DNA from: Anaerolineales bacterium
Lineage (GTDB): Bacteria; Desulfobacterota; DSM-4660; Desulfatiglandales; Desulfatiglandaceae
DNA: 33,012 nucleotides
Reading direction: 5' to 3'
Assembly: GCA_048636195.1 (NCBI GenBank)
Contig: JAIVXD010000001.1
Location: 1-33,012 of the forward strand
This document shows positions 16,865 through 33,012 of this stretch, piece by piece. Below the pieces are notes generated by a model, which saw nothing but the letters and a program-made list of their open reading frames with translations, did not search any database and was not told the DNA's origin. The position numbers were made by a program, and so were the translations under genes. Numbering within the stretch: the first letter of the stretch is position 1; every line of letters starts with the position of its first letter.

Positions 16865-17926
16865 TCATACCATCTTCATTATCTCTTCGGCTATTTTACT
16901 TAAAGGAACCACCTTATCCACAGCCCCTTCTTCGACCGCTGCTTTCGGCATGCCATACACCACACAGGTATCCTTATCCTGGGCAATTGTCTTGCCCTTA
17001 TTCTCCTTTATGGCCTTCATTCCCTTTGCCCCATCGTTGCCCATGCCGGTTAGAATAACCCCCGCTGCCTTATCTTCATAGACCTCTGCCACTGAAAGCA
17101 TCATCTTATCAACCGTGGGCCTCAGGCCATAGACAGGGGACTCCTGATTAAGACTTATAACCCCTGACGTCCTTTTGCCGGATATCTCTCTTTTTATGAT
17201 CATGTGATAATCGCCAGGAGCAATCAATGCCTTTCCCTGCTCTATTCTGTCACCTGCTTCCGCCTCTTTTACCTCTATCCGGGACTCGCTGTCCAACCTG
17301 CTGGCAAACGTTTTTGTGAACCCTTTGGGCATGTGCTGCACAATCAATAATCCTGTGGGAATATCAGGGTCGAGTTGGGAAAGTATCTCCCTTACGGCAC
17401 GTGGACCACCGGTGGATGCTCCAATAGCGACAACTCTCATTCCCTGAGCAATCTTCTTAGATTTGGCCGTTGGATATTTTTCAGGAATTTTTTTAGGCCG
17501 TATAAATTTGAGCCCATCAAGATCAACTCCGGCAGCTACCCTGATCTTGGCTATTAATTCATCACCTACCACTCTTATATCTCTTGATACAGGCCCTGAT
17601 GGCTTGGAAACAAAATCGACCGCCCCGTATTCCAGGGCACGAAAGGTGGCTTCTGCATCCTTTTGAGTATAGGCACTGACCATAACCACGGGAGTGGGAA
17701 TTTCGCTCATGATATAACCCAGGGCATGTAAACCATCCAGACGGGGCATTTCAACGTCCAGGGTAACCACATCAGGCTTTAGTTCGGCTACTCTCATGAT
17801 CCCGTCTTCACCATCCTTTGCCGTGGCTACCACCTCAATCCCCTTGTCAGAGTTGAGAATATCCGAAATCATCAGCCTCATCAAGGCAGAATCATCCACC
17901 ACCAGGACACGAATCTTATTGCTCAT
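16865..17926 (-). CDS. cheB: chemotaxis response regulator protein-glutamate methylesterase CheB
   Basis: Receiver domain (VLVVDDSALMR) plus esterase triad contexts GASTGGP, VQHMP and GMGNDG. Confidence 0.95.
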   Translation of the reverse strand: MSNKIRVLVVDDSALMRLMISDILNSDKGIEVVATAKDGEDGIMRVAELKPDVVTLDVEMPRLDGLHALGYIMSEIPTPVVMVSAYTQKDAEATFRALEYGAVDFVSKPSGPVSRDIRVVGDELIAKIRVAAGVDLDGLKFIRPKKIPEKYPTAKSKKIAQGMRVVAIGASTGGPRAVREILSQLDPDIPTGLLIVQHMPKGFTKTFASRLDSESRIEVKEAEAGDRIEQGKALIAPGDYHMIIKREISGKRTSGVISLNQESPVYGLRPTVDKMMLSVAEVYEDKAAGVILTGMGNDGAKGMKAIKENKGKTIAQDKDTCVVYGMPKAAVEEGAVDKVVPLSKIAEEIMKMV

Positions 17927-17966
17927 CCTCTTCCTTCACTACTTCCAAATACTGGAAACTGGAAAT

Positions 17967-18224
17967 TTGAAACTCGATACTTGAAAAGGGGCATTTTATT
18001 TAGTGCTTTTGATAAATGCATTGAGCTTTGGTCCCAATTCGTCGATGATCTTGGTGTAATCAGCAATCTGATACCCAATGGTCTTTTGAACTTTAACTGT
18101 CCAATTGTCAAAAGCATACCAAATCATATCGGATAGCTTTTCAGCCAACTTATAAACGTCCATTTCATAAATTTCTTTCATTCAACCCATCCCAGCATCC
18201 AGTATCCAGTTTCAAGTTTCAAGC
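17967..18224. repeat. inverted-repeat arms flanking the four-helix-bundle remnant (TTGAAA-rich element family)
   Basis: ttgaaactcgatacttg (17967-17983) matches the reverse complement of 18199-18215 (ttgaaactggatactgg) at 15/17 positions. The reverse complement of 18205-18224 equals 269-288 at 19/20 positions. The arms are rich in GGAAA/TTGAAA units. Confidence 0.55.
17996..18181 (-). pseudogene. internally deleted four-helix-bundle protein gene (23S rRNA intervening-sequence protein family)
   Basis: The 61-aa product joins an N-terminal block (DVYKLAEKLSDMIWYAFDNW...KTIGYQI) directly to a C-terminal block (IIDELGPKLNAFIKSTK). Both are typical of this roughly 120-aa family as I recall it, and the central helices are missing. 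Confidence 0.5.
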
Positions 18225-18231
18225 TCCCCCC

Positions 18232-18597
18232 TTACCCGCCTAAGATATTCTCAACTTCCTCGGTCACCTTTTCAGGCTTAAATGGCTTGACCACAAAACC
18301 TTTTGCTCCTGCTTCGACGGCTTCCTTTACCAGCGCCTGTTGGCCCAGGGCGCTGACTACAATTATTTTTGCTTTGGAATCTATCTTCAGGATTTCCCTT
18401 ATTGACTCAATACCCCCGACTCTCGGCATGACGATGTCCATGGTTACCAGATCCGGCTTCAGCTCCTTATAAAGCCTGATCGCTTCCTCGCCGTCTTCGG
18501 CCTCTCCGACAATATTATGACCTTTTTCTACAAGGATATCAGACAACATCATCCTCATAAAGGCAGCATCATCCACGATCAAGATTTTTACACTCAT
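18232..18597 (-). CDS. cheY: chemotaxis response regulator CheY
   Basis: 121-aa single receiver domain (ILIVDDAAFMR...DLVTMDIVMP...K). Confidence 0.93.
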   Translation of the reverse strand: MSVKILIVDDAAFMRMMLSDILVEKGHNIVGEAEDGEEAIRLYKELKPDLVTMDIVMPRVGGIESIREILKIDSKAKIIVVSALGQQALVKEAVEAGAKGFVVKPFKPEKVTEEVENILGG

Positions 18598-18607
18598 GCA
18601 TCCCCCC

Positions 18608-19099
18608 TCAAATTTCTTTGTTGCCGTGTAAAGCGTTCTTTGTCCTCACAACCCCTGTTTCAAGAAAAAATTCCACGGAACGACCATGGTTTCCCTCTGT
18701 ATCTTCCGCCACGAGGCTGATTTTTCTTTTTCTTAATTCATCCTTTACAGCAGCAATGTTTCTTGCTCCAATATGCATCGCATTGGCTCGATTTACAGTT
18801 GGAAACATATTTGCGCCTCCCACGATCCTGGCCTTTATCCGCCTCATGACCGCACCCAGATTGATCATTTCTTCCAGCATAATTTCCACGGCTGTATTGG
18901 CAAACTTGGCCTTATTCTTCTTTGATTTAGCGAGGTTGATATCCGGCAGCATGATGTGAGCCATGCTCCCTGCCTTGATCAATTCATCGTAAAGCATGAC
19001 CACCACACAGGAGCCCACCGATGGTGTGGTCAGCATATGGGATTTTTGGGCAGTTTTAACCTCCGCCAAACCAACTTTGATTACACTATCCAATGTCAA
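18608..19099 (-). CDS. cheD: chemoreceptor glutamine deamidase CheD
   Basis: Contains PSVGSCVVVMLYD (catalytic Cys context) and AHIMLP (His). 163 aa. Confidence 0.9.
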   Translation of the reverse strand: MTLDSVIKVGLAEVKTAQKSHMLTTPSVGSCVVVMLYDELIKAGSMAHIMLPDINLAKSKKNKAKFANTAVEIMLEEMINLGAVMRRIKARIVGGANMFPTVNRANAMHIGARNIAAVKDELRKRKISLVAEDTEGNHGRSVEFFLETGVVRTKNALHGNKEI

Positions 19100-19578
19100 G
19101 ACCCCATCACCTCTTCTACACTTTTCACCTCTTCGGGAGAAAGCACCTTGCTGAGGTTTAGCAGCACAAAAAGACGGTCATCAATCTTCCCGATCCCTTC
19201 AATATATCTGGTATCTATTCTGCTTTCTATTAGGGCAGGGGTAGGACCGATATCTTCCACAGAAATTCTCAGGACTTCCGGGACAAAATCAACAATCATA
19301 CCCACAATATTATCATCCACATCAACCACTACGATGCGGGTTTCTTCGCCACGCTCGGATGCGGGGAGACAAAACTGCCTGGCTAAATCGATAACAGCTA
19401 TCACCTGTCCCCTGAGGTTTATTACCCCCTCGATAAAAGAAGGAGCCTTTAGCATTCGTGTTATGTGGCTCATTTCAATAATCTCTTTCACCTGATCTAT
19501 CCTGGCTCCGAACTCTTCCTTTCCAAGGCGAAAGATAACCACCTGAATTTCTTTGCCAGCGGATTTATCTTCTTGCAT
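19096..19578 (-). CDS. cheW: chemotaxis coupling protein CheW
   Basis: 160-aa CheW-like domain (FRLGKEEFGARIDQVKEI...NLRGQVIAVIDL). Confidence 0.93.
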   Translation of the reverse strand: MQEDKSAGKEIQVVIFRLGKEEFGARIDQVKEIIEMSHITRMLKAPSFIEGVINLRGQVIAVIDLARQFCLPASERGEETRIVVVDVDDNIVGMIVDFVPEVLRISVEDIGPTPALIESRIDTRYIEGIGKIDDRLFVLLNLSKVLSPEEVKSVEEVMGS

Positions 19579-19579
19579 C

Positions 19580-21508
19580 CTAATTTCCTCCCACCTTGAA
19601 TTTGGCCGTCAATTCAGCCAATTTAATTGCCATATCAGACAACTCCTGGGCAGAGGAAGCCATTTCTTCCATGGAGGCTGTCTGCTCCTCAGTGGAGGCC
19701 GATACCTCCTGGACAGCCGAGGCATTTTCTTCGGCCGTCGCTGATATCTCCTCCATGGACCTTACGATCTTTTCGATACCCTCTACGATCTGTTGACTTG
19801 CGCTTGAGACCTGCTGGCTCATGGCACCTGCTTCCTCCGCTCCATTGATAATCTCTTCTAAAGCCACTCCGGTCTCCTTAACCATTTCCATCCCATCGGT
19901 TACCTCTTTACTTCCTGAATCTATGGAAGTAGCCGCCTTTTCTGTTTCTGTTTGTATCTCTGCAATCAGGTCAGCAATCTCCTCGGCTGATTTTTTAGAA
20001 CTTTCCGCAAGTTTGCGAACCTCCTCGGCTACTACTGCAAACCCCCGGCCTGACTCACCTGCCCTAGCCGCCTCAATGGCTGCATTTAAGGAAAGAAGAT
20101 TGGTCTGGTTGGCAAAACCGGTAATTACCTCAACAATCCGGCCTATCTGCTGGGACCTGTCTTTCAGGCTACGAATAGAACTGACAGACTCATTGATCAC
20201 AAAATCTATCTGCTCCATCTTTTCGACTGTTTTCTGGGTGGCGTTCCTGCCGGTCCTGGCCTTCTCAATGGCCTCCAGGGATGCAGATGAGGCCGACTGT
20301 GCAGCAGAGGCGTTTTCTTTTATAGTAGTTGAAATATCCTCTATAATCTTAGAGGTCTTTTCAGTGGCCTCTGCCTGCTTGCTCGAACCGGCAGCAATCT
20401 GCTGAACCGTTGAGGAGACCTCTTCGGTGGTCGCATTCATCTCCTGGGCCGAGGAAGATAACTCCTGGGAGGTTGCAGATACCTTTTCTGCTGTATTCTG
20501 GGTCTGACCAACAAGACCCCTGAGACTTTCAACCATCTGTTGAAAGGCAGTAGCCAGCATGCCCACTTCATCTCCTGCTTTTACCTCTACATCACGGGCC
20601 AGATCACCATTGGCAACGGTCTGAGATGCGGATACCAGTTCGCGGATGGGAATAGTTATCATCCTGGAAATAATCACGCCCATGACCCCGCCTGCAATTA
20701 CCGCAATAATGAGAACTACTATCATAACGGAGCCTGCTGTTGTCTGGGCCGTGGCTATGGTTGTCCATGCTTTATCTGCAATTTCCTCTGCTGTTTCATA
20801 AATAATTTGGCCATCATCCCTCATCCGGGCAATCAACTCATGGGTTTTTTTATGACTCACCACAAGTTTGTTAAAATCAGCCGCATATTGATCAGCCAAC
20901 CCATTGATTTCAGGATCGCCGCCAGCCACATCTTTTAGCCGGTTTATAGCATCGTTAAATTTCTCTTCATATGTTTTTTCTCCTGGCCGGGTCACTTTCA
21001 TATGGTATAGCTGGTAATTCTTTTCCGCCCTACTGGCTTCCAGCAGGCTGAGTATTATTTCGCCGGCTTTTTCTCTCCCCCCCGCAACTGCCTGCACTTT
21101 GCGGCCGGTAGCTATCATTTTACCGGTTAATTCTGCATCGGTTTCGATGTTTTTTATCATCTTATTAAAGATACCTTCGTATGTCTTTGTTGCACTCGTC
21201 ATTTTATCAAAACAGGAGATGTCAGCTTTGTCATGGATCTCTTGTCTTTCGGCAGCAAAATGTTCGCCCAGGTGGCTTATAGTTTCTTTAAGGCTTTCAA
21301 CATATTTTTGCTCATGCCATAAAAGATAATTTTTCTCATATATTCTGAGCTCCAAAACGTGATTCGTTATATGATCTCCCACTTGGACCAGTCTGGACGC
21401 TTCATCTATTTTACTAAAATTTACAAAGGCTGCTCCCGCCACTACCAGAGTTAAAAGAGTAATAGAAAAAAATCCAATAAACAGTTTTTTCCCAATGGTC
21501 CATTTCAT
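19580..21508 (-). CDS. methyl-accepting chemotaxis protein (two TM segments, extracytoplasmic helical sensor, HAMP, signalling domain)
   Basis: TM1 is [19 protein letters not shown] and TM2 is [20 protein letters not shown], followed by HAMP. The conserved hairpin tip reads [36 protein letters not shown]. Confidence 0.93.
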
Positions 21509-21532
21509 GTTTTCCTCCTTTCTGCTGATATT

Positions 21533-22351
21533 TTATATCTTCTGATATATGCGCTCTCTGATATTGACCGGCCGAAACAGCTCTGCCGACACCTCTGATA
21601 GGCTTTCGGCCTTTCCAAGTATCAAGTAGCCCCCTTTATTTAAGCCTTTACAGAATTTTCCAAACAGCCTCATTTGCAAACCTCTTGAAAAGTAAATCAA
21701 CACGTTTCTGCAAAGTATGATGTCTAAGCAGGCAAGAGGTCTGTCGGAAATCAGATTATGCCGCTTAAATTTTACCATCTGTCTTATCTCTTCCTTTAAT
21801 TTATATTTCAGGTCGCGCTTGAAATACAGCCTCAGTATTTTTTCATCGACTCCGGAAAAAGCGCCGGCTTCGTACTCAGCCGTTTTGGCTTTTTCCAGGC
21901 ACGGCTTATCAATATCGGTTGCATGAATAGAAATAAGAAAGTCATTAATCTTATTACCCAATATTTCATGGAACAGAATAGCCATGGAATATGGTTCTTC
22001 TCCGCTGGCGCAGCCGGCGCTCCAGACACGAATTATTTTCTTCCTATATTTTTTCTTCGATGAAACTAATTCCGGGATGACAGAGTCTTCTATTATCCTG
22101 TAAGCGCTCTTATCTCTAAAAAAATTGGTCACATTGATTGTGAGGGCGTCAAGGAGCCTGTCATATTCTGATGGATCTTTTTTCAGGACAGCCATGTACT
22201 CCAGGTAGCTATGCATCCCGGTTGCCCTCAATCTCACGTCAATCCTCCGCTTCAGGCATTTCTCCCTGTACTGGCTGAGATCCAGTCCTCTTTCCTTGAA
22301 TATCCTTTTCTGGAGGGCCAGGAAGCCCTGGTCACTTTGATCAATCAACAA
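21533..22351 (-). CDS. cheR: chemotaxis protein methyltransferase CheR
   Basis: SAM-binding VWSAGCASGEEPYS and CRNVLIYF. Its start codon directly abuts the stop of the upstream HD-GYP gene. Confidence 0.93.
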   Translation of the reverse strand: MLIDQSDQGFLALQKRIFKERGLDLSQYREKCLKRRIDVRLRATGMHSYLEYMAVLKKDPSEYDRLLDALTINVTNFFRDKSAYRIIEDSVIPELVSSKKKYRKKIIRVWSAGCASGEEPYSMAILFHEILGNKINDFLISIHATDIDKPCLEKAKTAEYEAGAFSGVDEKILRLYFKRDLKYKLKEEIRQMVKFKRHNLISDRPLACLDIILCRNVLIYFSRGLQMRLFGKFCKGLNKGGYLILGKAESLSEVSAELFRPVNIRERIYQKI

Positions 22352-23482
22352 TCAATCCAAAGCCCCCTTCTCCACCAGATCAAGGAACACCGGAACTATC
22401 TCCGGATCTAACTGTGTGCCGGCAACCTCTTTGATTATCCCCAAAGCCTTTTCTTTTGTAAAACATCTGCGGTAGGGCCTGTCCACCAATAAAGCCGCAT
22501 ACGTATCAGCAACGGCCAGGATGCGTGCCCCAAAAGGGATATCCTCTCCTTTAAGCCCGTTCGGATACCCACCGCCGTCATACCGCTCATGATGATGAAG
22601 GGCCAGGGATTTTACCTCCCACGGAAACTCTGCCTTTTCGATTATTCTGGCGCTAACAACAGGGTGTTCCTTAATAACACCGAATTCAGCATCTGTCAGG
22701 GACCCGAATTTCAAGAGAATCCCTTCCTGAAGCCCAATCTTGCCGACATCGTGCAGTATGCCGGCAACACGGATACCTTCAATTTCGGACTTAGAAAAAT
22801 TCATGGCTTTGGCTATAACGACAGCATATTTAGAAACCCGTTCAGAATGACCGCGAGTGTAAGGGTCCTTTGTCTCTATGGCCTCGGCCAAGGCTCTGAC
22901 GGTGCTGAAATAGCTTTTGAGCAGCTTCTCGTATAATTTTGCATTCTCGATAGCAATCGCAACGTGAACGGAGATGGTAGATAACAGCCGGAGATCTTTC
23001 TGACTAAATGGTTTTTTAGATTCTTTCTCTCCAAAATTAATCAGACCTACAAATTTATCCTTCACCACCAGAGGACAGGACAGGGTGATCTCCAATCCGA
23101 TTTTTTCCGACATTTTGCCGAAGAACTCTCTTGCGAACAATTCGTCTATATCGGACGGCAGAATCGGTTTTCTCCAATCAGTAATCCATTTGACAACTTC
23201 ATTTTCTGTCTTTATGCTGATTTCCTTCTCAATGCGCTTCTGTTTTAGCCCCTTGACCGACTTGATGTTCAACTCCCAGGACTTTTCATCAAAAAGCATG
23301 AGATATCCCGATGTTACCCTCACAAGCTCCACAAACATGTCGGTGGCAATATCGACAAGCTCCTTCAAATTAAGACCGGAAGCCAGCAGTTTGCCCTCAA
23401 GATAGACAGCATAAGACCGAAAACTTATCTCATCTAATTCTTCATCAAACTCTCTTCTCAAATCTTTATCCATAGGGAGCAT
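22352..23482 (-). CDS. GAF-domain HD-GYP phosphodiesterase
   Basis: The N-terminal GAF module is paralogous to that of the kinase at 12090-14222. The C-terminal HD-GYP signature is HDVGK...HHERYDGGGYP. Confidence 0.88.
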   Translation of the reverse strand: MLPMDKDLRREFDEELDEISFRSYAVYLEGKLLASGLNLKELVDIATDMFVELVRVTSGYLMLFDEKSWELNIKSVKGLKQKRIEKEISIKTENEVVKWITDWRKPILPSDIDELFAREFFGKMSEKIGLEITLSCPLVVKDKFVGLINFGEKESKKPFSQKDLRLLSTISVHVAIAIENAKLYEKLLKSYFSTVRALAEAIETKDPYTRGHSERVSKYAVVIAKAMNFSKSEIEGIRVAGILHDVGKIGLQEGILLKFGSLTDAEFGVIKEHPVVSARIIEKAEFPWEVKSLALHHHERYDGGGYPNGLKGEDIPFGARILAVADTYAALLVDRPYRRCFTKEKALGIIKEVAGTQLDPEIVPVFLDLVEKGALD

Positions 23483-23683
23483 AACTCCTTGTTAATATGC
23501 CTCCCAAAAAGAGGCAGCAATTTCATATCAACAATTTGGAAACGTAACTTCTCAAAAAGTTCGTGCCTCAACCCAACCTACAAAAATCAATCACTTGGAA
23601 GAACTTAATTTATCAGGGCGAAACCCAACAAATCGATTTAATAGCTTTTCGTTCAGGCACTATCTAAGGAAAGAGGTCAATAC

Positions 23684-25270
23684 ATGGTGGAAAAAAAATA
23701 TATTGTGGTCACAGGTGTGCCGAGCATTAAAAAATATGTATTCGGCACAGATCAATTAAAAGAAATCCGAGGGGCAAGTGCACTTCTTGAGGATTTAACA
23801 CGTAATCGAATAATCGAATATCTCAATAAATGTCCACAATTAGAAATCGAAACCGTGTTCGTGGGCGGTGGGGCCGGGCAGTTCATTATCGACGCTAAAG
23901 AAGAAGACCTGAATATGCATTTGAAAACGCTTGAAGGCGAATTCCTAAAAGTGACCCGCGGTGGGGCGCGACTGAGCTGGGGGAAGGCCCTGTTTGAGGG
24001 TAACAATTACCGGCAAACCTTGATACATGCTGAAATGAATGCCATGCAAAAGACCGAAGAAGCGCCCTTTCATCCTTTTGCCCGGCTCCACACAGGGTTC
24101 ATTCGGGAATGCGACAGTTGCGATGGTATGGTCTCTGCCCAATCTCAAAAAAAAGGCGAGAGAGATTCTCTGTTGTGCGACATCTGCTGTGCAAAGAGAG
24201 AATTCAATTATGAAAAGGCAAGGAAAAACTTTTTAAATGAGCTTTCCGAATACCTCAGCGTGAAAGGCCTTCACGTTGAGCCGGCCCAAGACTTTGAGCA
24301 AATCGGTGCACAATGCCGAACCAGACGTAGCTATACAGCGCTTGTATATGCGGATGGTAACGCCATGGGTAAGTTAATCAAGACTATTGACCGCAAGGAT
24401 TTATTTAAGTTTTTTTCCCGAACCGTTGACACCTCCATTAAGGAAGCCTGCTTCGAGGCATTGTTTGAGGCCTGCTTTCTCGACTTCAAAAAACCTTCTG
24501 CCATTATTCCGGCTGAAATCTTGATGCTTGGTGGTGACGATCTGCTGGTCTATCTAACCGCAGAAACAGCGTTTCCGTTTGCTGTCAAGGTGGCGGAAAA
24601 GTTTAACGCAATAACCAAAAAAAAGATGGAAGCTACCGAGGAGGGAGAATTCTTTTTAAAGAAAACGGAAGGCAAAGGGTTGTATATTTCCATCGGAATT
24701 GCTTTCGGGAAAAGTCATACGCCTTTTTCCATTCTACTGCACCAGGCAGAAGAACTGCTCAGCTTTGCTAAAAAGGCAGGATCGAATGATCCCGCTGCAG
24801 GAAAGTATTACGCTCCCGCTTATATCGACTACCACCTTTCCACCAACTACAATCAAATCAATGTGGTCGACAGCCGAATTAATCATCTGGAAGTTCCCGG
24901 CATGCAAGGGAAAAGGCCTATCAGGCTTTACCAGAAACCATACTCACTGACGGACGCTAAAGCATTGTTGGAGTCAGCCCGAAAACTTGTGCAATCCGGC
25001 ATCCCCAAGACTCGGCTAAATCGCCTGGGAAACGCACCGGTCATGGGAAAGATGAACGGCACATTGGAATGTCTCAAACTTTACACTCGAACAAAGGCGG
25101 ATCAACGTCTTGTAATATGGAACATCCTTGACCGCTTTGACTGTATCGGCAATATGCCGTGGAACGAGGAGGGTATCGTGGATACAACCATGCTGGTGGA
25201 TCTGATGGAACTTGTCGGGTTTTGTGGAAATGACAACATTAACGCCGGAAAGGAGTACGATGCAACATAA
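23684..25270 (+). CDS. cas10: Cas10, compact HD-less form with intact GGDD cyclase motif (type III-D-like)
   Basis: The N-terminus starts directly with a palm-like block (YIVVTGVPSIKKYVFGTDQLKEIRGASALL...FVGGGAGQFII). Cys4 zinc ribbon CDSCDG...CDICC (nt about 24110-24190). Second palm ALVYADGNAMG...LMLGGDDLLVY, with GGDD at nt 24530-24541. No HD motif or N-terminal extension. AAGAGG RBS. Confidence 0.8.
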   Translation: MVEKKYIVVTGVPSIKKYVFGTDQLKEIRGASALLEDLTRNRIIEYLNKCPQLEIETVFVGGGAGQFIIDAKEEDLNMHLKTLEGEFLKVTRGGARLSWGKALFEGNNYRQTLIHAEMNAMQKTEEAPFHPFARLHTGFIRECDSCDGMVSAQSQKKGERDSLLCDICCAKREFNYEKARKNFLNELSEYLSVKGLHVEPAQDFEQIGAQCRTRRSYTALVYADGNAMGKLIKTIDRKDLFKFFSRTVDTSIKEACFEALFEACFLDFKKPSAIIPAEILMLGGDDLLVYLTAETAFPFAVKVAEKFNAITKKKMEATEEGEFFLKKTEGKGLYISIGIAFGKSHTPFSILLHQAEELLSFAKKAGSNDPAAGKYYAPAYIDYHLSTNYNQINVVDSRINHLEVPGMQGKRPIRLYQKPYSLTDAKALLESARKLVQSGIPKTRLNRLGNAPVMGKMNGTLECLKLYTRTKADQRLVIWNILDRFDCIGNMPWNEEGIVDTTMLVDLMELVGFCGNDNINAGKEYDAT

Positions 25271-25964
25271 CATCAAGATCGCCCTTGACCTCCATTTTAT
25301 TTCCAAATGGCATGCCGGGTCAGGAGAAAGCAGCTTGAGCATCGACCGACTCATACAAAGGGATGCCAAAGGGTGGCCATTTATCCCCGGCAGTACCCTA
25401 AAAGGCATGGTGCGGGAAAACTGCGAAAAACTGTCCCGGACATTGAACTTTCCTGAGCCTGCCGATCCCCATCAAATCGACTTGACGATTCAGGACAGGT
25501 TTCAACCTCTGGATAAACTGGAATCGCCGGTGGATCGGATATTCGGAAACAAATACCAGAGCGGCAATCTGTTTTTCAGGGATGCACGCCTGGATACGCC
25601 GCCGCCACATTATTTTGCTAGAAATCAAAGCCGAACCAGCGTTTATCGTGTACTCGGTACGGCAAGAGAGCACCATCTCTTTTCAAGTGAGTACGTTGCT
25701 CCCATGACCTTATCGACCCTGATTGAGGGATACCAGCGAAAAATGACTTATCTCAATGAGGGAGACACTCCTTATGAATACTGCCTGCTTATCGCTGGAA
25801 TAATGAGCTTGGAGCGGCTGGGCGGAGACAAAAGCACAGGGAGTGGAAAGGTTCGCATACAAATTAATTCCATTGAATACAACGGCATATCTTTGGATAA
25901 AGAATCGGTTTTTGAATATCTGGATGAGGAGTTGTACAGATTGACTAAAGAGGAGATGGCATGA
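25260..25964 (+). CDS. cas7: Cas7-type RAMP (Csm3-like), copy a
   Basis: WHAGSGESSLSIDRLIQRDAKGWPFIPGSTLKGMVRE matches the Csm3 pattern G-rich loop, xID, xxRD, IPGSSxKG. Start is ATG 25260 with GGAAAGGAG upstream, an 11-nt overlap with cas10. Confidence 0.8.
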   Translation: MQHNIKIALDLHFISKWHAGSGESSLSIDRLIQRDAKGWPFIPGSTLKGMVRENCEKLSRTLNFPEPADPHQIDLTIQDRFQPLDKLESPVDRIFGNKYQSGNLFFRDARLDTPPPHYFARNQSRTSVYRVLGTAREHHLFSSEYVAPMTLSTLIEGYQRKMTYLNEGDTPYEYCLLIAGIMSLERLGGDKSTGSGKVRIQINSIEYNGISLDKESVFEYLDEELYRLTKEEMA

Positions 25965-27121
25965 ACTATTACCGCCTTACAGCCACACTTCTGGCTCCGC
26001 TCGCGATCCAACGAACCCGCCAGAACAATGCACCCGGGGCCTTGCCCTATCTGCCTGGGAGCAGTTTGCGTGGTGCAGTGGCAGCCAAATATCTTCGGGA
26101 GGGAGGAAGCCCTGAGGATGATGAATTCAGGACACTTTTCATCGAAAATCCGGTATTTTTTCCAAATCTGTTGCCAACTGACCATGATGGAAAAATCATT
26201 TCACAGGTGCTGCCGCTGACCAGTGTATCGTGCAAACGATATCCGGGTTTTACAAGCGAAAATGGTCATAGTGTTCGGGACACCTTGGTGAAAAAGATGT
26301 TGGAGCGTAACGATCCGGATAATTATCGTGAGCAGGCCTGCATAAAGTGTGACAATGATCTAAAGGGACTTTCCGGGTTTTGGAACGGTAATATGGCAGC
26401 TCCCCAGATGTTTCAGCCGACCATGTTCTTCCAGCGTCATACCGGAATCGATCGGACAACCGGTACTGTTGCACCTAAAATATTTTTCATCACCCAGGCC
26501 ATTGCTGACTTTCAAAAAACTCCGACGGGTGATTATGAACGTCAGATCCTTTCCGGCGGCATGTTTATGAATGACCGGCAGATAGCTGTACTGGAGCCAT
26601 TGTTTAAAACCCCTCTGTTTGCCGGTCAGGATCGTACACGGGGAATGGGGGAACTGCAAGTCGCCGTTGAACCTTTTAATATTGAACCTCCGGATATTGA
26701 TACCTGGGACCGAAAATTTAAAGACATAATAAAACATAATGCCCGTGGCAATCTCGACACGGCTCTTTTATCCGGCCTTTATTTCAGCCTTAAACTGGAA
26801 TCCCATGCCATTCTTGTTGATGATTTTTTGCGCCCGACAACTGAAATAGAGCTCACCTTGCCGTGCGTTGAGCCAGTTTTGAAGGTAACCGGATCACAGC
26901 TCATCCGGGGATGGAATGATGCCTGGGGGCTGGCCAAACCGGATGATATGGGAATCATAATGGGAAGTGTTTATCTGTTCCGATATACCGGCAACAATCG
27001 GGAAGGCCTGCGGCAGTATCTGAACAAGCTGGCCATTGACGGAATCGGACTGCGGCGCGCGGAAGGTTTTGGCAGCGTGTTGATCTGTGATCCACTGCAT
27101 ACTCGAAAGGAGGCGATTTAA
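25961..27121 (+). CDS. csx10: Cas5-like RAMP, Csx10-like by position and architecture
   Basis: YLPGSSLRGAVAAKY near the N-terminus, Cys pairs (CKRYPGF...CIKCDN) and a C-terminal glycine-rich RAMP loop GLRRAEGFGSV. It is the third gene after cas10 and cas7, as in type III-D loci. ATGA overlap with the upstream gene. Confidence 0.65.
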   Translation: MNYYRLTATLLAPLAIQRTRQNNAPGALPYLPGSSLRGAVAAKYLREGGSPEDDEFRTLFIENPVFFPNLLPTDHDGKIISQVLPLTSVSCKRYPGFTSENGHSVRDTLVKKMLERNDPDNYREQACIKCDNDLKGLSGFWNGNMAAPQMFQPTMFFQRHTGIDRTTGTVAPKIFFITQAIADFQKTPTGDYERQILSGGMFMNDRQIAVLEPLFKTPLFAGQDRTRGMGELQVAVEPFNIEPPDIDTWDRKFKDIIKHNARGNLDTALLSGLYFSLKLESHAILVDDFLRPTTEIELTLPCVEPVLKVTGSQLIRGWNDAWGLAKPDDMGIIMGSVYLFRYTGNNREGLRQYLNKLAIDGIGLRRAEGFGSVLICDPLHTRKEAI

Positions 27122-27546
27122 TGGATGTAATAAAATTTGCGGAGCCTATATTAAATCCTGAAACATTGAAGGCAATCGACTTGCATCTTGAGGCCTTATA
27201 CGAAAGTAAGACAACGATAGATATCGGTCAAAAAATGGCGGACGTCGAGCTTAAAAGCAGTCAAATACGCAATTTGGAAAACCTGGTGATGTCCACAAAA
27301 CGTTTTTCGGAAATTATTAATTTCATTAAAAATCAAACAGGGAAAGATAAAAAAGGGAAGTGGCCTCTGATTGCGGATACCCTCCTCCATCAACTCGAAG
27401 CTCTGGAGGATAAGGCCAGAGAGATTGGAAAAGATAATCCCGGCATAACTTTTGAGGTAAAAAGGCAACTGGCAAGGGGATGGGTAAAACAGATAGTGGC
27501 TCATTATTTTTTCGCTGATTCGAAAAAAAAGAAGGATAAACTATGA
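27121..27546 (+). CDS. cas11: Cas11-like small subunit (Csm2-like)
   Basis: 141 aa, predicted all-helical. LKSSQIRNLENLV resembles the SQ(I/L)R motif of Csm2/Cmr5. TAATG overlap with csx10 and an AAGGAGG RBS. Confidence 0.6.
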   Translation: MDVIKFAEPILNPETLKAIDLHLEALYESKTTIDIGQKMADVELKSSQIRNLENLVMSTKRFSEIINFIKNQTGKDKKGKWPLIADTLLHQLEALEDKAREIGKDNPGITFEVKRQLARGWVKQIVAHYFFADSKKKKDKL

Positions 27547-28019
27547 AAACAGATTTGCTGGAATCCTACTCATTTTATTTACTTCAGGACGAAGCAATGC
27601 GCAAAAATGCCTGCCAGGCTGTGGACCACTTTCTCAAAGTCCAACAGCCTGTTAAAAATGCACAACTGCACGCCATTCCTCCCGTCATGCAGGCCAAGGG
27701 TCTTTCAGGACTTCGGGGTTTGATTGATAATCAGAAAAGCAAAAACACTAAAAAAGAGAATAAGAAATTTTGGTTATTTTTATCGGATCTTATCCTGTCA
27801 AATCCCGGCCCCGAGTTTTCGCTTAGAAAATTTTTGCTTGACCAACCGCAAATAAAGGCCTTGCTTCAGGATGAGACATCAGCAATAGAAAAAAAAGAAC
27901 AAAAAAAGATTCGGAAAGCCAACAAGGCTATTGTAGATGAGATCATGGAATATGTTCTTCCAGTCTATTTTGAGCACTTCAATTGTCATTATTTCTATCG
28001 AACAAGGCAAGGAGCTTAA
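27543..28019 (+). CDS. second small helical subunit, distant tandem paralogue of the Cas11-like protein
   Basis: 158 aa. VKNAQLHAIPPVM...GLIDNQKSKNTKKENKKFW parallels LKSSQIRNLENLV...NFIKNQTGKDKKGKW of the preceding protein. ATGA overlap with the upstream gene. Confidence 0.35.
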   Translation: MKTDLLESYSFYLLQDEAMRKNACQAVDHFLKVQQPVKNAQLHAIPPVMQAKGLSGLRGLIDNQKSKNTKKENKKFWLFLSDLILSNPGPEFSLRKFLLDQPQIKALLQDETSAIEKKEQKKIRKANKAIVDEIMEYVLPVYFEHFNCHYFYRTRQGA

Positions 28020-28021
28020 TC

Positions 28022-28852
28022 ATGAACACCCGAAATTATTTTCGAAACAAGATCCGAATTGAAGGAACACTGGCCTTTGAAACTGCTTTTCACATTGGAT
28101 CCGGTAAAGAGGGCGAGTTGGCGACAAATATGGGAGTGTTGATAGCCCCGGACGGCAGGCCCATTCTGCCTGGATCTACACTTAAAGGTAATTTCAGGTC
28201 GTTAGCCGAGCGACTCTCCGGATATCTGGGCTTAAGCGCCTGCCTGCTCGATGATGGACTATCCGGTGATGGATGCTTTACCGGGCTGTCCGACCAGGAA
28301 AAACGCAAAGCAAAATACGAAGTGTTCAAGGAATTGAAAACCGAGGACGCAAAATTGAAATGGCTGCACAATAATACCTGCGAGATCTGCCGACTCTTTG
28401 GATCACCACTGCATGCCTCACGTATTTTTTTCAGCGACGGCCTGCTAATCAATTGGAGCAACGCGCTTCAAATCAGAGACGGCGTTTGCATTGACCGGGA
28501 TTCGGAAACCGCCCGCCACGGCGCAAAATACGATTTTGAAGTTGTTCCGGCAGGGGCCGCGTTCAAGATCACCATTGAACTGGAAAACCCGGTTGACAAG
28601 GAACTGGCCCTGGTCGGGGCTGTGTTGACTGAATGGGAAGCAGGATTTCGAATAGGCGGTTTTACATCCCGTGGCCTCGGCAGGGTGCGGCTCGAGGATA
28701 AGACTGTCCGGCAGGTGGATTATACAGACCCAGATCAACTCAAACGGTATCTGTTGAAACGCGAAATGCAGGAGGCGAAGACATTGCTGACCGAAAGCCT
28801 GAAAAGGCTGCTCAATCATCAGGGAGGAGACCATGCTGAAAAAAATAATTAA
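28022..28852 (+). CDS. cas7: Cas7-type RAMP (Csm3/Cmr4-like), copy b
   Basis: FHIGSGKEGELATNMGVLIAPDGRPILPGSTLKGNFRSLAE, CEICRLFGS and RIGGFTSRGLGRV (G-rich loop). Start is ATG 28022 with AAGGAG upstream; the track ORF starts at 27983. Confidence 0.85.
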   Translation: MNTRNYFRNKIRIEGTLAFETAFHIGSGKEGELATNMGVLIAPDGRPILPGSTLKGNFRSLAERLSGYLGLSACLLDDGLSGDGCFTGLSDQEKRKAKYEVFKELKTEDAKLKWLHNNTCEICRLFGSPLHASRIFFSDGLLINWSNALQIRDGVCIDRDSETARHGAKYDFEVVPAGAAFKITIELENPVDKELALVGAVLTEWEAGFRIGGFTSRGLGRVRLEDKTVRQVDYTDPDQLKRYLLKREMQEAKTLLTESLKRLLNHQGGDHAEKNN

Positions 28853-29837
28853 CAGCGCCCGGATCGAAATGGACATTATTCCCATTGATCCCTTGCTTAT
28901 CAAGTCAGGGCAGGCCAGCGTGAGCGGTGTGGACATGGCATTTGTCAGGACATATCGCAGTGGTGAGAAAGATGAGCCCTTTATTCCCGGCAGCTCCCTC
29001 AAGGGCGTGATTCGCTCCTACGCGGAAAAAATATGCCGCAGTCTGAAAGATGATCCAGTTCCCGTCTGCCTGCCCTATCTCAAACCTAAAGGCAAGGCTG
29101 AAAAAGGCGAGGAGCGCCAATACTCTTGCGGTTTACTCTTTGAAAAGTTTAAAAAAGACAAAAAACTGGAAACCGTTCCCACACCGGATGTTTACAGGCT
29201 TTCATGTCCAGCCTGCCGTTTATTTGGTTCGCACTGTTTTATCGGTCGGCTTGCCACATCCGATGCTTATTTAACGGAAAGCTTTAAAGCCCAGGGACGG
29301 CCGGTATTTGAAATCCGTGACAGCGTTGCCATCGACCGGATCACCGGCGGTGTAGCTAATGGACCATTTGATCTGGAAGTGCTCACCCGCGGTGAGTTCA
29401 GTACCAGTCTGGATATACGTAATTTCGAACGCTGGCAGTTGGGCATGATCGCCCTTGTCCTTCGGGACATGGAAGAGGGATTGGTTCGAATCGGTTTTGG
29501 AAAAAGCCGGGGGCTCGGGCGCTTCAAGGCCAGGATTACCCGTTTCGGGATCACCTATTATCATCGAAAACCTGATACCTTATCCGGTCTTCAGGCCCTG
29601 TGTTCTGAAAACGATTGTCAACAGTATGGCTTTTTTGAAGAATCCAAAAAAAATGCCTTTGAGCTACCCCAGGCTGAACCCAACGGGCTTCGAAACGAAT
29701 ATGACCTCACGGATAGCTGGAAAACGGCTCTTGCTCCGGCGGTGAACGATCTGATCCGGTATATCGAAACGGTGTCGTGGCCGACTGATCTTGAAAAGTA
29801 TCTTGAAGGAGGGAAACATGCCGTTTCTGCAGGTTAA
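28833..29837 (+). CDS. cas7: Cas7-type RAMP (Csm3/Cmr4-like), copy c
   Basis: SGQASVSGVDMAFVRT...PFIPGSSLKGVIRSYAE, CPACRLFGS and RIGFGKSRGLGRF. GGAGGA RBS and a 20-nt overlap with copy b. Confidence 0.85.
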   Translation: MLKKIINSARIEMDIIPIDPLLIKSGQASVSGVDMAFVRTYRSGEKDEPFIPGSSLKGVIRSYAEKICRSLKDDPVPVCLPYLKPKGKAEKGEERQYSCGLLFEKFKKDKKLETVPTPDVYRLSCPACRLFGSHCFIGRLATSDAYLTESFKAQGRPVFEIRDSVAIDRITGGVANGPFDLEVLTRGEFSTSLDIRNFERWQLGMIALVLRDMEEGLVRIGFGKSRGLGRFKARITRFGITYYHRKPDTLSGLQALCSENDCQQYGFFEESKKNAFELPQAEPNGLRNEYDLTDSWKTALAPAVNDLIRYIETVSWPTDLEKYLEGGKHAVSAG

Positions 29838-30357
29838 TGATTTTGATATTGACTCTTTTTTCGATTTAATCTGTCGATATCATACCCATGCTGCACAACA
29901 TTTTGAAACATTGCCCATCTTACTGGCTTTTTCACCGGCCCGGGCACTCTTTGAGATCCTGAACACGGATGAATCTTTTTTCAAGAACACAGACCAGGGG
30001 CGGGTCTTTTCACCCGAGGGCGAGCTGAAATGGCGACGAATTAGGGATAAGATGCGCGTTGTTTTTTTGGGGGATGTCGCTCCGCCGGAAGGGCTTGAAG
30101 ACCGCTCATCCGAACTATCTGATTTGAAAAAGGTTGTATCTGAACTCATCCTTTGGGGGGAAAGGACTGATACCAAAAAAGAATGGATCGAACAGCAGGT
30201 GCCCCATCGGTTTCAATACCCTGTTTTCACAACACGCTACAACCGAGGCAGGGCCGCCATTATAATCGAAAATTGGAATGATGTATTCGGGTTTCCGCAG
30301 GTTAGCCGCTACCACAGTCTAAAAGAAATGCCAGGAGAGATAAATGCCCAAGGATGA
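29818..30357 (+). CDS. uncharacterised type III-D accessory subunit in the Csx19/all1473 slot
   Basis: About 179 aa with no motif I can name. It lies between the third and fourth Cas7 genes, where III-D loci carry the all1473/Csx19-type gene. Start is ATG 29818 behind GGAGGG (the track start 29791 is a TTG). It overlaps both neighbours. Confidence 0.4.
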   Translation: MPFLQVNDFDIDSFFDLICRYHTHAAQHFETLPILLAFSPARALFEILNTDESFFKNTDQGRVFSPEGELKWRRIRDKMRVVFLGDVAPPEGLEDRSSELSDLKKVVSELILWGERTDTKKEWIEQQVPHRFQYPVFTTRYNRGRAAIIIENWNDVFGFPQVSRYHSLKEMPGEINAQG

Positions 30358-31429
30358 AACATTCTGGAATCCATATCGTCTGATCCCTGTTCAGGATACC
30401 ATTTCAAAAAAAAGGCCGTTGACTGACGAAAAATTCAGGGCCAACAGTGGCCGAATCTACTGCACAATCGAGAATCTTACCCCTCTTTTCATCGGCGGTA
30501 ATCGAAATAATTCGCAACAGTTTCTAATCAGTAATGGAAAGTACACTATCCCCGGCAGCTCACTCAAGGGAATGCTTCGCTCGCTTGCTGAAATTATAGG
30601 TGGAGGATGCAGTGTTACCGACTCCAATGGCCGGTTTAATAAAACGTATGCAGCCTGCAACAAGGTACATTCCTTGTGCGTAACCTGCCGCATGTTTGGC
30701 ATGATGGAACGTGGAAGAGGAGCCAAAGTACACAAAGGCAAAATCTTTATTAGCGATGCCTTGACACGGGAGGAAAAACCGGAAACAAAGCTCTTCGATG
30801 TTCAGCTTTTTAATCATGCTACGAAGCACGAACCATTTTACAGAACTCCCCAAACCGGCAGGCTTGATGGTAAGTCTCGTAAATTCTACTTTCATCAGCC
30901 AAAAAGAAAGAATTCTGCCTTGGAACCTACAAACATTCAGAAATTTGTGGATAAAAAAAATGCTATTCTGCCTGGTTGTCAATTCGAGTTTGAGATAGAT
31001 TTTGTAAGTCTGGAAAAATTTGAGCTTGAACTTCTGGTTTATATCCTGGCCCTTGAAGAGAATGTGGATGTTATTATCGAGGATGGGAAAATCCCATTAA
31101 AAGGTCCCATGCGGCACAAGCTTGGATACGCAAAACCATTGGGGCTGGGTAGCTGTCGTATTGATTTAAACAAAATTGAATATTTCGCAGCGCCGGCAGA
31201 GCGTTTCTCTTCTCTTGGTCAGATGGAAAACACAGTTTACGAAAGAGATACTCTGAAGACCTTGATAAAAACATTAACACATAGATTTGTATCCGACACT
31301 TCCGCCACCATGCAACAACTTCGAAAAATGATGGTATGGGATGAAAATGATCCAAGGGATTTTGCATATCCCAAGAATCATTGGTTTAATAACCCCTTGA
31401 ATTCAGGAAAGACACTAAAACACATCTGA
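30344..31429 (+). CDS. cas7: large Cas7-type RAMP (Csm5-like / cyanobacterial-type RAMP), copy d
   Basis: N-terminal FWNPYRLIPV resembles the F-x-NPY-x-F-(I/V)-P opening of the III-D-associated RAMP family. Also IPGSSLKGMLRSLAE, CVTCRMFG and YAKPLGLGSC (G-rich loop). Confidence 0.75.
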   Translation: MPKDETFWNPYRLIPVQDTISKKRPLTDEKFRANSGRIYCTIENLTPLFIGGNRNNSQQFLISNGKYTIPGSSLKGMLRSLAEIIGGGCSVTDSNGRFNKTYAACNKVHSLCVTCRMFGMMERGRGAKVHKGKIFISDALTREEKPETKLFDVQLFNHATKHEPFYRTPQTGRLDGKSRKFYFHQPKRKNSALEPTNIQKFVDKKNAILPGCQFEFEIDFVSLEKFELELLVYILALEENVDVIIEDGKIPLKGPMRHKLGYAKPLGLGSCRIDLNKIEYFAAPAERFSSLGQMENTVYERDTLKTLIKTLTHRFVSDTSATMQQLRKMMVWDENDPRDFAYPKNHWFNNPLNSGKTLKHI

Positions 31430-31495
31430 ACAGATAAATTTTTATTGGGCATTTAAAAAGCCAAAAACACAACCTCACTAATTGGGAGAAATACT

Positions 31496-32668
31496 ATGAA
31501 ACCTGTATTCTTAAGCTACAGCCGAAAAAATGTTAAGGATGTTCAGGAAATCGCCGACACTCTATGTGCTGGAGGCATCCGAATCTGGCAGGATATAGAG
31601 TCTTTGGCCACCGGCAATACTGATGAACAAATCCGGAAAGCCATTCAAGAAGAATGTGCCGCTTTCTTCCTGTACATTACAGATGAAAGTGTGGAATCGG
31701 AATTTATCCGGGAAGTCGAAATCAAGGAAGCATTAAATAAAAGCAAAAGAGATGAAACTTTCCATATTGTTCCCTTGATACACATGCCCTTAGAAAAAGC
31801 AAATCAAAAGTTACAAGGCAGTATGCTGGGTGATATTTCAAGATATAATGGTGTTATCATTCATGATGGTGAAACGCTTTCCGAAGCTTCCAGTAAAATC
31901 AGAAAGATTTTGCTGAAAGCGATTATCAAGCGCCCTGCGGATCAGGATTTTGCAATCTCCTTAATGACCTATTCAAGAACACCGGGTAATATTCAACCAC
32001 AACTTGATCTTGACTGGAGCCGATTAAATTTTTCCGATAAAATTATGTCTGACACTATCTGGAAGACACACCTCCTGCCTGCCTTGAAGGATGTCAAGGA
32101 TGCCTTGTTGAATGCCGGGGTGACGCATATAAGACTGTTTGCAAAAGCAACCCTGTCAGCGAGTATGGCATTCGGATATATTTTCAGGCGAGAGACAGGA
32201 TTTAAAATCATAATTAGTCAGGGAGAGCAATTGTGGTCTTCTCAGGATAGACCGGAAAAGCCATCGGGATTGAAAATCAAAGCGCAATCAAGAAATATCG
32301 GGTCAAAACATCTCGGAGTAAATCTTTCCATAACGAGATCTATTGATAACGGCCTTGAAAATTACATAGATAAACAGCGTCTTTCTCTTCGCTCTGAGCT
32401 TTTTTGTGAACCGGCAGAAGGTCCTTCCCGGGAGTCAGTGCCGAATCATAATGTAGCTTCTGCGATGGCTTGGGAAATCGGTAATGCGGTAAGAGATGCA
32501 AAGAGTAAATACAATATCACCGATATTCATATTTTTGGAGCAATGCCATTGGGACTGGCCGTTCTGATCGGTTCAGAGTTAAACGCCTGTGGCAGAGTCC
32601 ATCTTTACGAATTTAATAAATCTGAAAGCATGTATTATCCCTCATGGACACTTGAGGGGAACTACTGA
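31496..32668 (+). CDS. TIR-SAVED fusion protein, predicted cyclic-oligoadenylate-activated NADase effector
   Basis: The N-terminus VFLSYSRKNVKDVQEIADTL...IRIWQD...ESEFIREVEI is a TIR pattern. The C-terminal roughly 240 aa contains two CARF-like pseudo-repeats (HIRLFAKATLSASMAFGYIF and IHIFGAMPLGLAVLIGSELN...VHLYEF), typical of SAVED. GGGAG RBS, 66 nt after the last cas7. Confidence 0.8.
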   Translation: MKPVFLSYSRKNVKDVQEIADTLCAGGIRIWQDIESLATGNTDEQIRKAIQEECAAFFLYITDESVESEFIREVEIKEALNKSKRDETFHIVPLIHMPLEKANQKLQGSMLGDISRYNGVIIHDGETLSEASSKIRKILLKAIIKRPADQDFAISLMTYSRTPGNIQPQLDLDWSRLNFSDKIMSDTIWKTHLLPALKDVKDALLNAGVTHIRLFAKATLSASMAFGYIFRRETGFKIIISQGEQLWSSQDRPEKPSGLKIKAQSRNIGSKHLGVNLSITRSIDNGLENYIDKQRLSLRSELFCEPAEGPSRESVPNHNVASAMAWEIGNAVRDAKSKYNITDIHIFGAMPLGLAVLIGSELNACGRVHLYEFNKSESMYYPSWTLEGNY

Positions 32669-32882
32669 TTTTCGCAATTCTCTTGTAGCCTTTCCCTATT
32701 AAAAAAAGGCCAAAAAAAGGGGGTGGTTACAGGAAATTTATAATTATTTGTTATTGCTGATAAAAATTGTTGTTTACGATGGGAAATAAGGTGGTGAAAA
32801 CATGAAAAAAGAGTCGAAAAAGAGAGGTTACAGAAAAGCCTATTCTAAGTATCTGTATTTATTGTCTGGAAAAAGGCTGCCA

Positions 32883-33012
32883 TCTGAAACTGAGACCTGA
32901 TGAATAAGGGATTGAGACGTTTTTGAATATATCGTACAAATGGATAATGTCAAATACTCTGAAACTGAGACCTGATGAATAAGGGATTGAGACTGATAAT
33001 CCTGATTGTTCG
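32883..33012 (+). CRISPR. start of a CRISPR array: two 36-nt repeats, one complete 39-nt spacer, one truncated spacer
   Basis: tctgaaactgagacctgatgaataagggattgagac occurs identically at 32883-32918 and 32958-32993. Spacer 1 is 32919-32957. The repeat 3' end ATTGAGAC resembles the ATTGAAAC/G 8-nt tag, supporting plus-strand transcription. The array runs off the window edge. Confidence 0.85.

Follow-up and report, generated by a model that had tools for sequence, protein, structure and literature searches.

The 33,012-nt stretch of contig JAIVXD010000001.1 analyzed here (the whole of it is referred to as the window) ends in a chromosomal type III-D CRISPR interference module with the unfused III-D1 layout. 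The operon, its effector gene, and the start of a CRISPR array occupy positions 23684-33012, where ten open reading frames (ORFs), all intact, are found on the forward strand. Judging from gene identities, motifs, synteny, and conservation, this module is very probably coupled to a single effector sensing cyclic oligoadenylate (cOA), a TIR-SAVED protein that would act by depletion of nicotinamide adenine dinucleotide (NAD+); the biochemical activities are predicted by analogy with characterized systems.

Gene content and subtype of the effector complex

Nine translationally coupled genes span 23684-31429 when the ATG starts judged most plausible are taken, and their junctions consist, in gene order, of overlaps of 11, 4, 1, and 4 nt, a 2-nt gap, and overlaps of 20, 20, and 14 nt. 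The last of them, cas7-4, is separated by 66 nt from the TIR-SAVED gene, which in turn lies 214 nt from the first repeat. Gene identities were assigned by profile searches with three hidden Markov model (HMM) libraries, namely Pfam, NCBIfam, and PADLOC, whose results are mutually consistent.

The large subunit Cas10 (528 aa, 23684-25270) exhibits palm/cyclase domains, a Cys-rich zinc-finger-like stretch, and a GGDD motif at residues 283-286. It matches the PADLOC profiles Cas10 (8e-71, residues 4-409) and Cas10d (4e-37, residues 7-513) as well as Pfam Cas10-Cmr2_palm2 (1.2e-14), and its best solved relative in a PDB sequence search is the HD-less Cas10 of the III-Dv complex (8s9t_C, 5.2e-8). 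Because the alignment pairs its residue 6 with residue 314 of the 829-aa Sulfolobus III-D Cas10 (8bmw_K), the protein begins at palm1 and is missing the N-terminal ~310 residues. No HD family is matched anywhere in Cas10, and no HD dipeptide occurs in its first 150 aa. In the survey by Hoikkala et al., 97% of III-D loci have an HD-less Cas10 and 3% a Cas10 with HD (PMC11229360).

Four separate cas7 genes are present. Cas7-1 (234 aa, 25260-25964) is a Csm3/Csx7-like backbone subunit (RAMPs, 4.8e-18; PADLOC Csm3, 3e-24) and aligns to the Cas7 domain of 8s9t_A. Cas7-2 (276 aa, 28022-28852) is a backbone subunit of the Csx7 type (TIGR02581, 3.9e-43, 147.6 bits, above the cut-off of 108) and matches Cas7-2x of III-Dv (8s9t_D, 1.5e-17), and the Csx7-like backbone subunit Cas7-3 (334 aa, 28833-29837; RAMPs, 3.2e-22; TIGR02581, 1e-28) aligns to the latter half of fused Cas7_IIId models (PDLC02115, positions 222-443). 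The terminal Cas7-4 (361 aa, 30344-31429) is a RAMP of the TIGR03986 type (1e-44; PADLOC Csm3/Cas7_IIId, 2e-48). Its match to the 568-position TIGR03986 profile is confined to the two ends, namely the N-terminal stretch and positions 328-556, and this subunit therefore has no large insertion. Csx10 (386 aa, 25961-27121), the III-D-specific Cas5, matches both TIGR02674 (1.6e-48) and PADLOC Cas5_IIId (4e-49) over its full length, the former with 165.9 bits, slightly below the curated cut-off of 177.3. The all1473-type Csx19 (179 aa, 29818-30357), a subunit specific to III-D1 and III-Dv, is recognized by TIGR03984 (3.4e-10, 39.9 bits, above the cut-off of 35) and by PADLOC Csx19 (2e-8), and its orthologues in related loci carry PF27799. 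The small subunit Cas11 (141 aa, 27121-27546) matches PADLOC Csm2 (1.7e-9) and the III-D effector_SS profile (8e-9). Its AlphaFold2 (AF2) model is all-helical, with a predicted local distance difference test (pLDDT) score of 92, and the top Foldseek matches are the Cas11 chains 8bmw_B/E (probability 0.97) and the Cas11 domain of 8s9x_A.

As published, a III-D1 operon has cas10, csx10, cas11, and csx19 in addition to four unfused cas7 genes (10.1101/2022.06.13.496011), and III-Dv and III-D2 are characterized by fused genes and an insertion in the last Cas7 (10.1101/2022.06.13.496011; PMC13294483; PMC11026444). The window has four separate RAMP genes and one HMM-recognized cas11, none of them fused, and its Cas7 subunits have no insertion; its gene content and order are those of III-D1, plus one added gene (27543-28019). 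The order cas10, cas7, csx10, cas11, cas7, cas7, csx19, terminal cas7 is common to the window, to III-D1 (Özcan 2021; Schwartz 2022/2024), and to the Synechocystis III-Dv system (PDB 8s9t-8s9x). The likeness to III-Dv extends to the HD-less Cas10 with GGDD and to Csx19, and III-Dv chains are the best PDB matches for Cas10, Cas7-1, and Cas7-2. Unlike in III-Dv, however, the subunits are unfused and the terminal Cas7 has no large insertion. Compared with both III-D1 and III-Dv, the window has an extra small gene after cas11, its effector is a TIR-SAVED protein rather than Csx1 or Csm6, and neither cas6 nor adaptation genes are adjacent within the window.

A sequence-only reading of the same stretch had called it an unfused III-D operon with an HD-less, GGDD-bearing Cas10, and this call stands: the Csx10, Csx19, and Cas10 signatures hold in HMM, PDB-sequence, and comparative checks, the HMM classification moved no protein set to another subtype, and the 528-aa protein is indeed a Cas10 palm-domain protein by the PADLOC and palm2 matches given above. 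The gene order, overlaps, and gaps it listed agree exactly with the ORF junction coordinates.

The added gene encodes a 158-aa, all-helical protein, which is probably a second, diverged Cas11 paralogue. The gene is kept in the same slot, directly after cas11, in every related locus examined, and within a set of 1.84 billion proteins the family of its product forms 74 clusters at 50% identity. Sequence and profile searches with the 158-aa protein gave no match in Pfam, NCBIfam, PADLOC, or PDB sequences, and family members scanned against PADLOC gave no Cas11 match. With its AF2 model (pLDDT 90), the best Foldseek candidates are Cmr5/Cas11 chains (9l7c_G, 9arw_F, 2zop_A, and the Cas11 domain of 8s9x_A), at TM scores of 0.37-0.46 and all with E>1. 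As a calibration, the model of the neighboring, HMM-supported Cas11 gives TM scores of 0.40-0.48 and E values of 0.18-1.4 against Cas11 chains. Alignment of the two families with hhalign (E 3.7e-4, probability 36%) extends over 114 colinear columns, and the shared columns include a Q-I/L-R/H helix, an NQxxKxxK...W segment, and a C-terminal HYF[FY] motif.

It is possible, though unlikely, that this protein is instead an unrelated accessory or regulatory protein, e.g., an assembly factor or a Cas10 modulator, and not a small subunit. The missing library matches, the hhalign probability of only 36%, and the E values of the Foldseek matches favor such a view, as does the fact that the III-Dv complex manages with a single Cas11 domain plus the Cas10 C-terminus. 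It is harder to reconcile with the gene's position directly 3' of cas11 in all related loci, overlapping it by 4 nt, with the similar size and all-helical nature of both proteins, with the three motif segments shared in a colinear profile alignment, and with fold candidates that are Cmr5/Cas11 chains at TM scores like those of the bona fide Cas11 model. While the slot, the helical fold, and a weak profile and fold likeness point to the second cas11-like gene proposed from sequence, no HMM library confirms it. As a side observation, one family member (P0131, 496 aa) carries the domain at its C-terminus (residues 337-493), the N-terminal part matching the PADLOC candidate family PDC-M28B.

The TIR-SAVED effector and the slot it occupies

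The tenth gene (31496-32668), preceded by a GGGAGA ribosome-binding site, encodes a 390-aa TIR-SAVED protein, a predicted cOA-activated NADase. It matches SAVED PF18145 (5e-31), TIR_2 (1.1e-11), NF033611 (4e-42), and PADLOC SAVED5--SAVED_TIR (9.8e-60), in agreement with the identity first proposed for it, and aligns over its full length to the TIR-SAVED protein of Microbacterium ketosireducens (Mke; 7qqk_A, 4e-13). Residue E75 stands opposite the catalytic E84 of Mke, of which the E84Q variant is inactive (10.1101/2022.05.04.490601), and is invariant in 22 homologues. The adenine-stacking W394 of Mke corresponds to F373, an aromatic residue thus being kept at this position, and R388 corresponds to R367. 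The TIR and SAVED domains cover residues 3-387 of 390, and no Crn4 domain is present. Homologues with 88-97% identity are found in metagenome-assembled genomes of Desulfobacterales and in metagenomes.

No SMODS CD-NTase gene, the criterion for a cyclic-oligonucleotide-based antiphage signaling system (CBASS), is found in the window. In a distance tree, the homologues fall into two clades, one CRISPR-linked and the other CBASS-linked. Members of the first have III-D or III-A neighbors wherever the context was examined (window, P0002, P0008, P0016, P0020, P0022); in the second, both context-examined members (L015 and L020, 36-38% identity) adjoin SMODS CD-NTase and ThiF genes, in CBASS operons at 9123-11164 and 7126-9164 of these loci, respectively. 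The C-terminal SAVED motif is PSW in the CRISPR-linked clade versus PSC in the CBASS-linked clade. This split agrees with the term "moonlighting CBASS effector" that the survey uses for TIR-SAVED (PMC11229360). In Candidatus Desulfarcum epimagneticum (L014, 1-11161), a homologue with 43% identity lies beside a type III-A csm operon, with transposase genes between them.

The filament-forming, cA3 (cyclic triadenylate)-activated TIR-SAVED protein (PDB 7qqk; Hogrel et al. 2022), which the sequence-only reading had taken for a type III-associated effector, belongs to the type II-C CBASS of M. ketosireducens, and was coupled only artificially to a heterologous type III-A system (10.1101/2022.05.04.490601). 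It shares with the window protein the two-domain architecture, a similar length, the catalytic Glu, the aromatic residue at W394, and the Arg at R388. It is found beside a CD-NTase, however, whereas the window protein belongs to the separate CRISPR-linked clade and sequence similarity between the two is low. TSR1 (TIR-SAVED-Crn4), a cA3-activated dimeric NADase, is a CRISPR-native type III module that degrades NAD+ upon receiving the Cas10 product, as predicted for the window effector (10.64898/2026.09.16.751991). In contrast with TSR1, the window protein has no Crn4 ring-nuclease domain and would therefore be without a built-in off-switch and dimer "staple"; by analogy, its behavior should be closer to that of the filament-forming CBASS protein than to that of TSR1. 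Cat1 (CARF-TIR) is likewise a cOA-activated TIR NADase that gives type III immunity via NAD+ depletion, as proposed here, but its sensor is a CARF domain responding to cyclic tetraadenylate (cA4), and the sensor domains CARF and SAVED have no sequence relationship.

The pairing of TIR-SAVED with III-D, which had been put forward as worth characterizing, has already been catalogued: Hoikkala et al. (2024) report TIR-SAVED in seven type III loci, including III-D, a pairing common to those loci and the window (PMC11229360). That survey covers complete genomes, and in the text consulted neither the Desulfobacterales metagenomic lineage, nor the extra small subunit, nor Cas7 active-site losses are described. 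Two elements are potentially new, namely the second small subunit, which is conserved, and the pattern of Cas7 active sites discussed below.

Genome and metagenome scans for the window's own contig returned only short contigs breaking at the array and no exact TIR-SAVED match; the wider context, including the view beyond the array, is that of relatives, namely five longer contigs and one complete genome. The TIR-SAVED gene lies directly after the last cas7 in five independent lineages (L003, L006/7, L008, L013, and L018; 46-95% identity). On the 107-kb contig L006, with a 95% identical TIR-SAVED protein, cas6 and an AAA_35 ATPase gene stand upstream of cas10 (1-2168) and are followed by the same ten genes, then by two arrays, small ORFs, a transposase gene, and histidine kinase genes. 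In L013 (46% identical), cas6 and the same ten genes precede housekeeping genes, and L008 (67% identical) has the same arrangement up to the contig end. An upstream cas6 is also found in L016 and L017, and in L019 the TIR-SAVED gene is located between a RAMP gene and a downstream cas6. Over a range from 43% to 97% identity, many metagenomes retain the GGDD motif, the catalytic Glu of the TIR domain, and the order of the genes.

The same effector-complex genes, including the pair of small genes, are found in sister loci where the slot after the last cas7 has other occupants: CARF-RelE and Csx20 in Desulfonema magnum (L011, 14117-15704), and Csx1 and Csx20 in L016 (13207-14897) and L017 (13912-15587). 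Csx20 is a confirmed cA4 ring nuclease (PMC12409355). Since sister loci fill this same slot with CARF effectors and Csx20, it is a position at which signaling effectors are swapped. As an aside, cas10 of Desulfonema magnum (CP061800; L011, 4353-7683) appears to be split into a 387-aa palm2 ORF, an unrelated 515-aa ORF without GGDD, and a 144-aa ORF, which suggests that it carries an insertion or is disrupted.

TIR-SAVED had been read as the only visible signaling output, with the proviso that a canonical CARF effector might lie just beyond the array. This was examined in the relatives L006 and L013, where no CARF, SAVED, or ring-nuclease gene occurs within 10 kb past the TIR-SAVED gene. The reading thus stands within the window and past the effectors of these two loci, but does not extend to the more distant L018, which has a CARF-HEPN Csm6 gene upstream of cas10 (1362-2780) together with TIR-SAVED in the slot (11382-12563). 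Because L018 carries Csm6 too, TIR-SAVED is not always the sole output in the lineage, and this is the first of the points to be weighed below.

Predicted signaling, Cas7 active sites, and competing readings

By analogy with the III-Dv structure, CRISPR RNA (crRNA) from the adjacent array would be held by a complex with a base of Csx10 (Cas5), Csx19, and Cas10, a backbone of four different Cas7 subunits, and a minor filament of Cas11 and the 158-aa Cas11-like protein. Once a complementary non-self transcript is bound, cOA, most likely including cA3, would be made by the palm domains of Cas10 (GGDD); in III-Dv, target RNA triggers cOA production by Cas10, activating Csx1 (PMC11026444). As 7qqk and TSR1 would suggest, binding of the nucleotide by SAVED may lead to self-association, and a composite TIR active site would then hydrolyze NAD+, the depletion of which would bring about growth arrest of the infected cell. 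No DNA cleavage would be expected, since Cas10 has no HD nuclease, and no ring nuclease is visible in the system.

With regard to target RNA, the catalytic aspartates of III-Dv are D26, D33, and D246 (PMC11026444). Cas7-1 D29 aligns to D26 (8s9t_A) and Cas7-3 D34 lies in the corresponding loop, both being predicted catalytic residues. In contrast to III-Dv, Cas7-2 has an Asn (N36) exactly at the position of D33, each 14 residues before a PG(S/T) motif, and the motif region of Cas7-4 contains no Asp. Because of this Asn, the target RNA would be cut at probably two positions (Asp29 of Cas7-1 and Asp34 of Cas7-3), and cleavage by Cas7 is probably reduced. The RNA cleavage originally assigned to Cas7 would therefore probably be retained at D29 and D34 but not in Cas7-2.

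In the loci compared, the residue in Cas7-2 goes with the effector. Wherever a TIR-SAVED-linked locus has the gene (window, L003, L006/7, L008, L013, L018), the residue is Asn, and it is Asp in all loci with CARF and Csx20 (L011/12, L016, L017), the latter being D/D/D over Cas7-1, Cas7-2, and Cas7-3. For the same three subunits, the window is D/N/D, L003 is N/N/D, L006/7 is D/N/N, and L008 and L013 are D/N/G. The additional losses are independent, even among relatives with a TIR-SAVED protein at least 92% identical to that of the window. In a tree built from five concatenated effector proteins, the branching is star-like and too poorly resolved to group the TIR-SAVED loci, so that it accommodates a single origin as well as convergent Asp-to-Asn changes. 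The association comes from a small sample of loci and is a lead rather than a result.

Since the TIR-SAVED loci all have Asn in Cas7-2 and no ring nuclease, whereas the CARF sister loci are D/D/D and carry Csx20, it can be speculated, with considerable doubt, that III-D1 systems that took up the CBASS-derived TIR-SAVED effector have systematically dismantled both usual type III off-switches, Cas7 cleavage and the ring nuclease. The association would be sensible if cleavage loss and the missing ring nuclease prolonged signaling for an effector that needs high-order assembly. If so, a self-limiting CRISPR response would become a sustained, one-way, CBASS-like abortive-infection switch, cleavage loss might be needed to reach the cOA level driving TIR-SAVED filaments, and the second Cas11 paralogue might be part of the remodeled complex. 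A plainer explanation for the pattern of Asp losses would be that selection on RNA cleavage is relaxed.

Besides L018, several points weigh against a functional III-D1 module with TIR-SAVED as its single output. The window, without cas6 or adaptation genes, ends inside the array, and other effectors may lie beyond it. The R388-equivalent residue varies across the TIR-SAVED family, which makes the ligand uncertain, and Hoikkala et al. tentatively proposed cA4 for CRISPR-linked TIR-SAVED (PMC11229360). The catalytic Asp losses among close relatives could mean that the system is decaying, and the window spacer and three L006 spacers have no exact protospacer matches in IMG/VR. Finally, the Cas11 assignment of the 158-aa protein leans on weak profile and fold signals.

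As to the ligand made and sensed, the least certain step of the proposed pathway, cA3 is somewhat favored by analogy. With the same architecture, TIR-SAVED might instead be triggered by cA4 (or cA6), the SAVED pocket having been retuned after leaving CBASS. This is rather unlikely, although cA4 is the predominant type III signal and the proposal quoted above was made because one CRISPR TIR-SAVED co-occurs with Csx1 (PMC11229360). It would also agree with the separation of the CRISPR-linked from the CBASS-linked clade, in the PSW versus PSC motif and the R388-equivalent residue, and with the presence of Csx1 and the cA4 ring nuclease Csx20 beside a closely related effector complex in sister loci. 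On the other hand, both characterized TIR-SAVED-type proteins, including the CRISPR-native TSR1, use cA3, an aromatic residue is retained at the W394 position, and Csx20 is missing precisely from the TIR-SAVED loci.

That the locus is a decaying or orphaned module without immunity, or TIR-SAVED a hitch-hiking ex-CBASS gene, is improbable. Such a state could be suspected from the lack of cas6, cas1, and cas2 in the window, from homology to L006 that stops ~24 nt before the cas10 ATG, from catalytic Asp residues that differ among near-identical relatives, and from the spacers searched without protospacer matches. However, all ten ORFs are intact and tightly coupled, GGDD, the catalytic Glu of the TIR domain, and the entire gene order are kept from 43% to 97% identity, relatives have arrays with varied spacers, and many type III systems rely on a Cas6 encoded elsewhere (PMC12669027). 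The synteny of TIR-SAVED with the last cas7 in at least five lineages speaks against hitch-hiking. Signaling through S-adenosylmethionine-AMP (SAM-AMP), as in III-D2 with CorA, was rejected, given the lack of CorA, the SAVED sensor, and a III-D1 rather than III-D2 layout.

A III-D1 module with TIR-SAVED as its predicted NAD+-depleting output extends a known pattern and leaves current understanding unchanged. It documents modular effector swapping at a fixed slot, with TIR-SAVED, Csx1 and Csx20, or CARF-RelE and Csx20 as occupants. No stand-alone CRISPR-native TIR-SAVED protein is known to have been characterized, the model filament protein being from CBASS and TSR1 an atypical self-limiting dimer, and no unfused III-D1 complex with Csx19 is known to have been solved. 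The compact ten-gene cassette lends itself to three questions: the identity of the cOA made by an HD-less III-D1 Cas10, a possible prolongation of signaling by the natural loss of Cas7 cleavage sites, and the placement of a second Cas11 paralogue in the minor filament.

The CRISPR array and the surroundings of the operon

The TIR-SAVED gene is followed, on the same strand, by a 214-nt AT-rich spacer (32669-32882), presumed from its position to be the CRISPR leader, and by the array (32883-33012), in which two 36-nt repeats enclose a 39-nt spacer and a second spacer has just begun when the window ends. The two repeats (32883-32918 and 32958-32993) are identical, and no such match occurs in 100 shuffles. 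The repeat is essentially unstructured, and it ends in ATTGAGAC, which resembles the usual 8-nt 5' tag of type III crRNAs. The same repeat forms the L006 arrays of 6 and 7 copies. The first of these (11440-11851) displays a tandem duplication, spacers 1 and 2 being identical to spacers 3 and 4, respectively, and the terminal repeats of both are degenerate at the last two bases.

No CRISPR-related genes are found in 1-23482, and no cas6, cas1, cas2, CARF, or ring-nuclease gene anywhere in the window. Scans of the window for transfer RNA genes, Rfam families, and tandem repeats gave no features, and promoter and terminator scans gave site counts not above those of shuffles. The gene content upstream of the operon is ordinary and consistent with an anaerobic Desulfobacterales chromosome. 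It consists of a hydrogenase cluster at 673-11993 (a hypE-like AIR synthase-related gene, hypD, the large and small subunits of a NiFe hydrogenase, an FlpD/ferredoxin protein, hypF, hypB, and hypA), and of a hybrid histidine kinase gene with a complete chemotaxis operon at 12090-22351. A GAF-HD-GYP (HD_5) gene at 22352-23482, on the reverse strand, is divergent from cas10 and 201 nt away. Its product, which could in principle act on cyclic nucleotides as a hydrolase, was considered as a possible cOA phosphodiesterase of the system and rejected; since its adjacency to cas10 is found in no relative, the gene looks like a member of the chemotaxis/signaling cluster.

Homology between the window and L006 starts only ~24 nt upstream of the cas10 ATG, within 23483-23683, the chemotaxis operon standing where L006 has cas6. 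The module may have been relocated or truncated in the window, and a cas6 for this system must be encoded elsewhere. In L006 and L007 (1-45 in the latter), a solitary degenerate CRISPR repeat is located ~65 nt upstream of cas10, and a remnant of it can be recognized in L013 (2090-2255).

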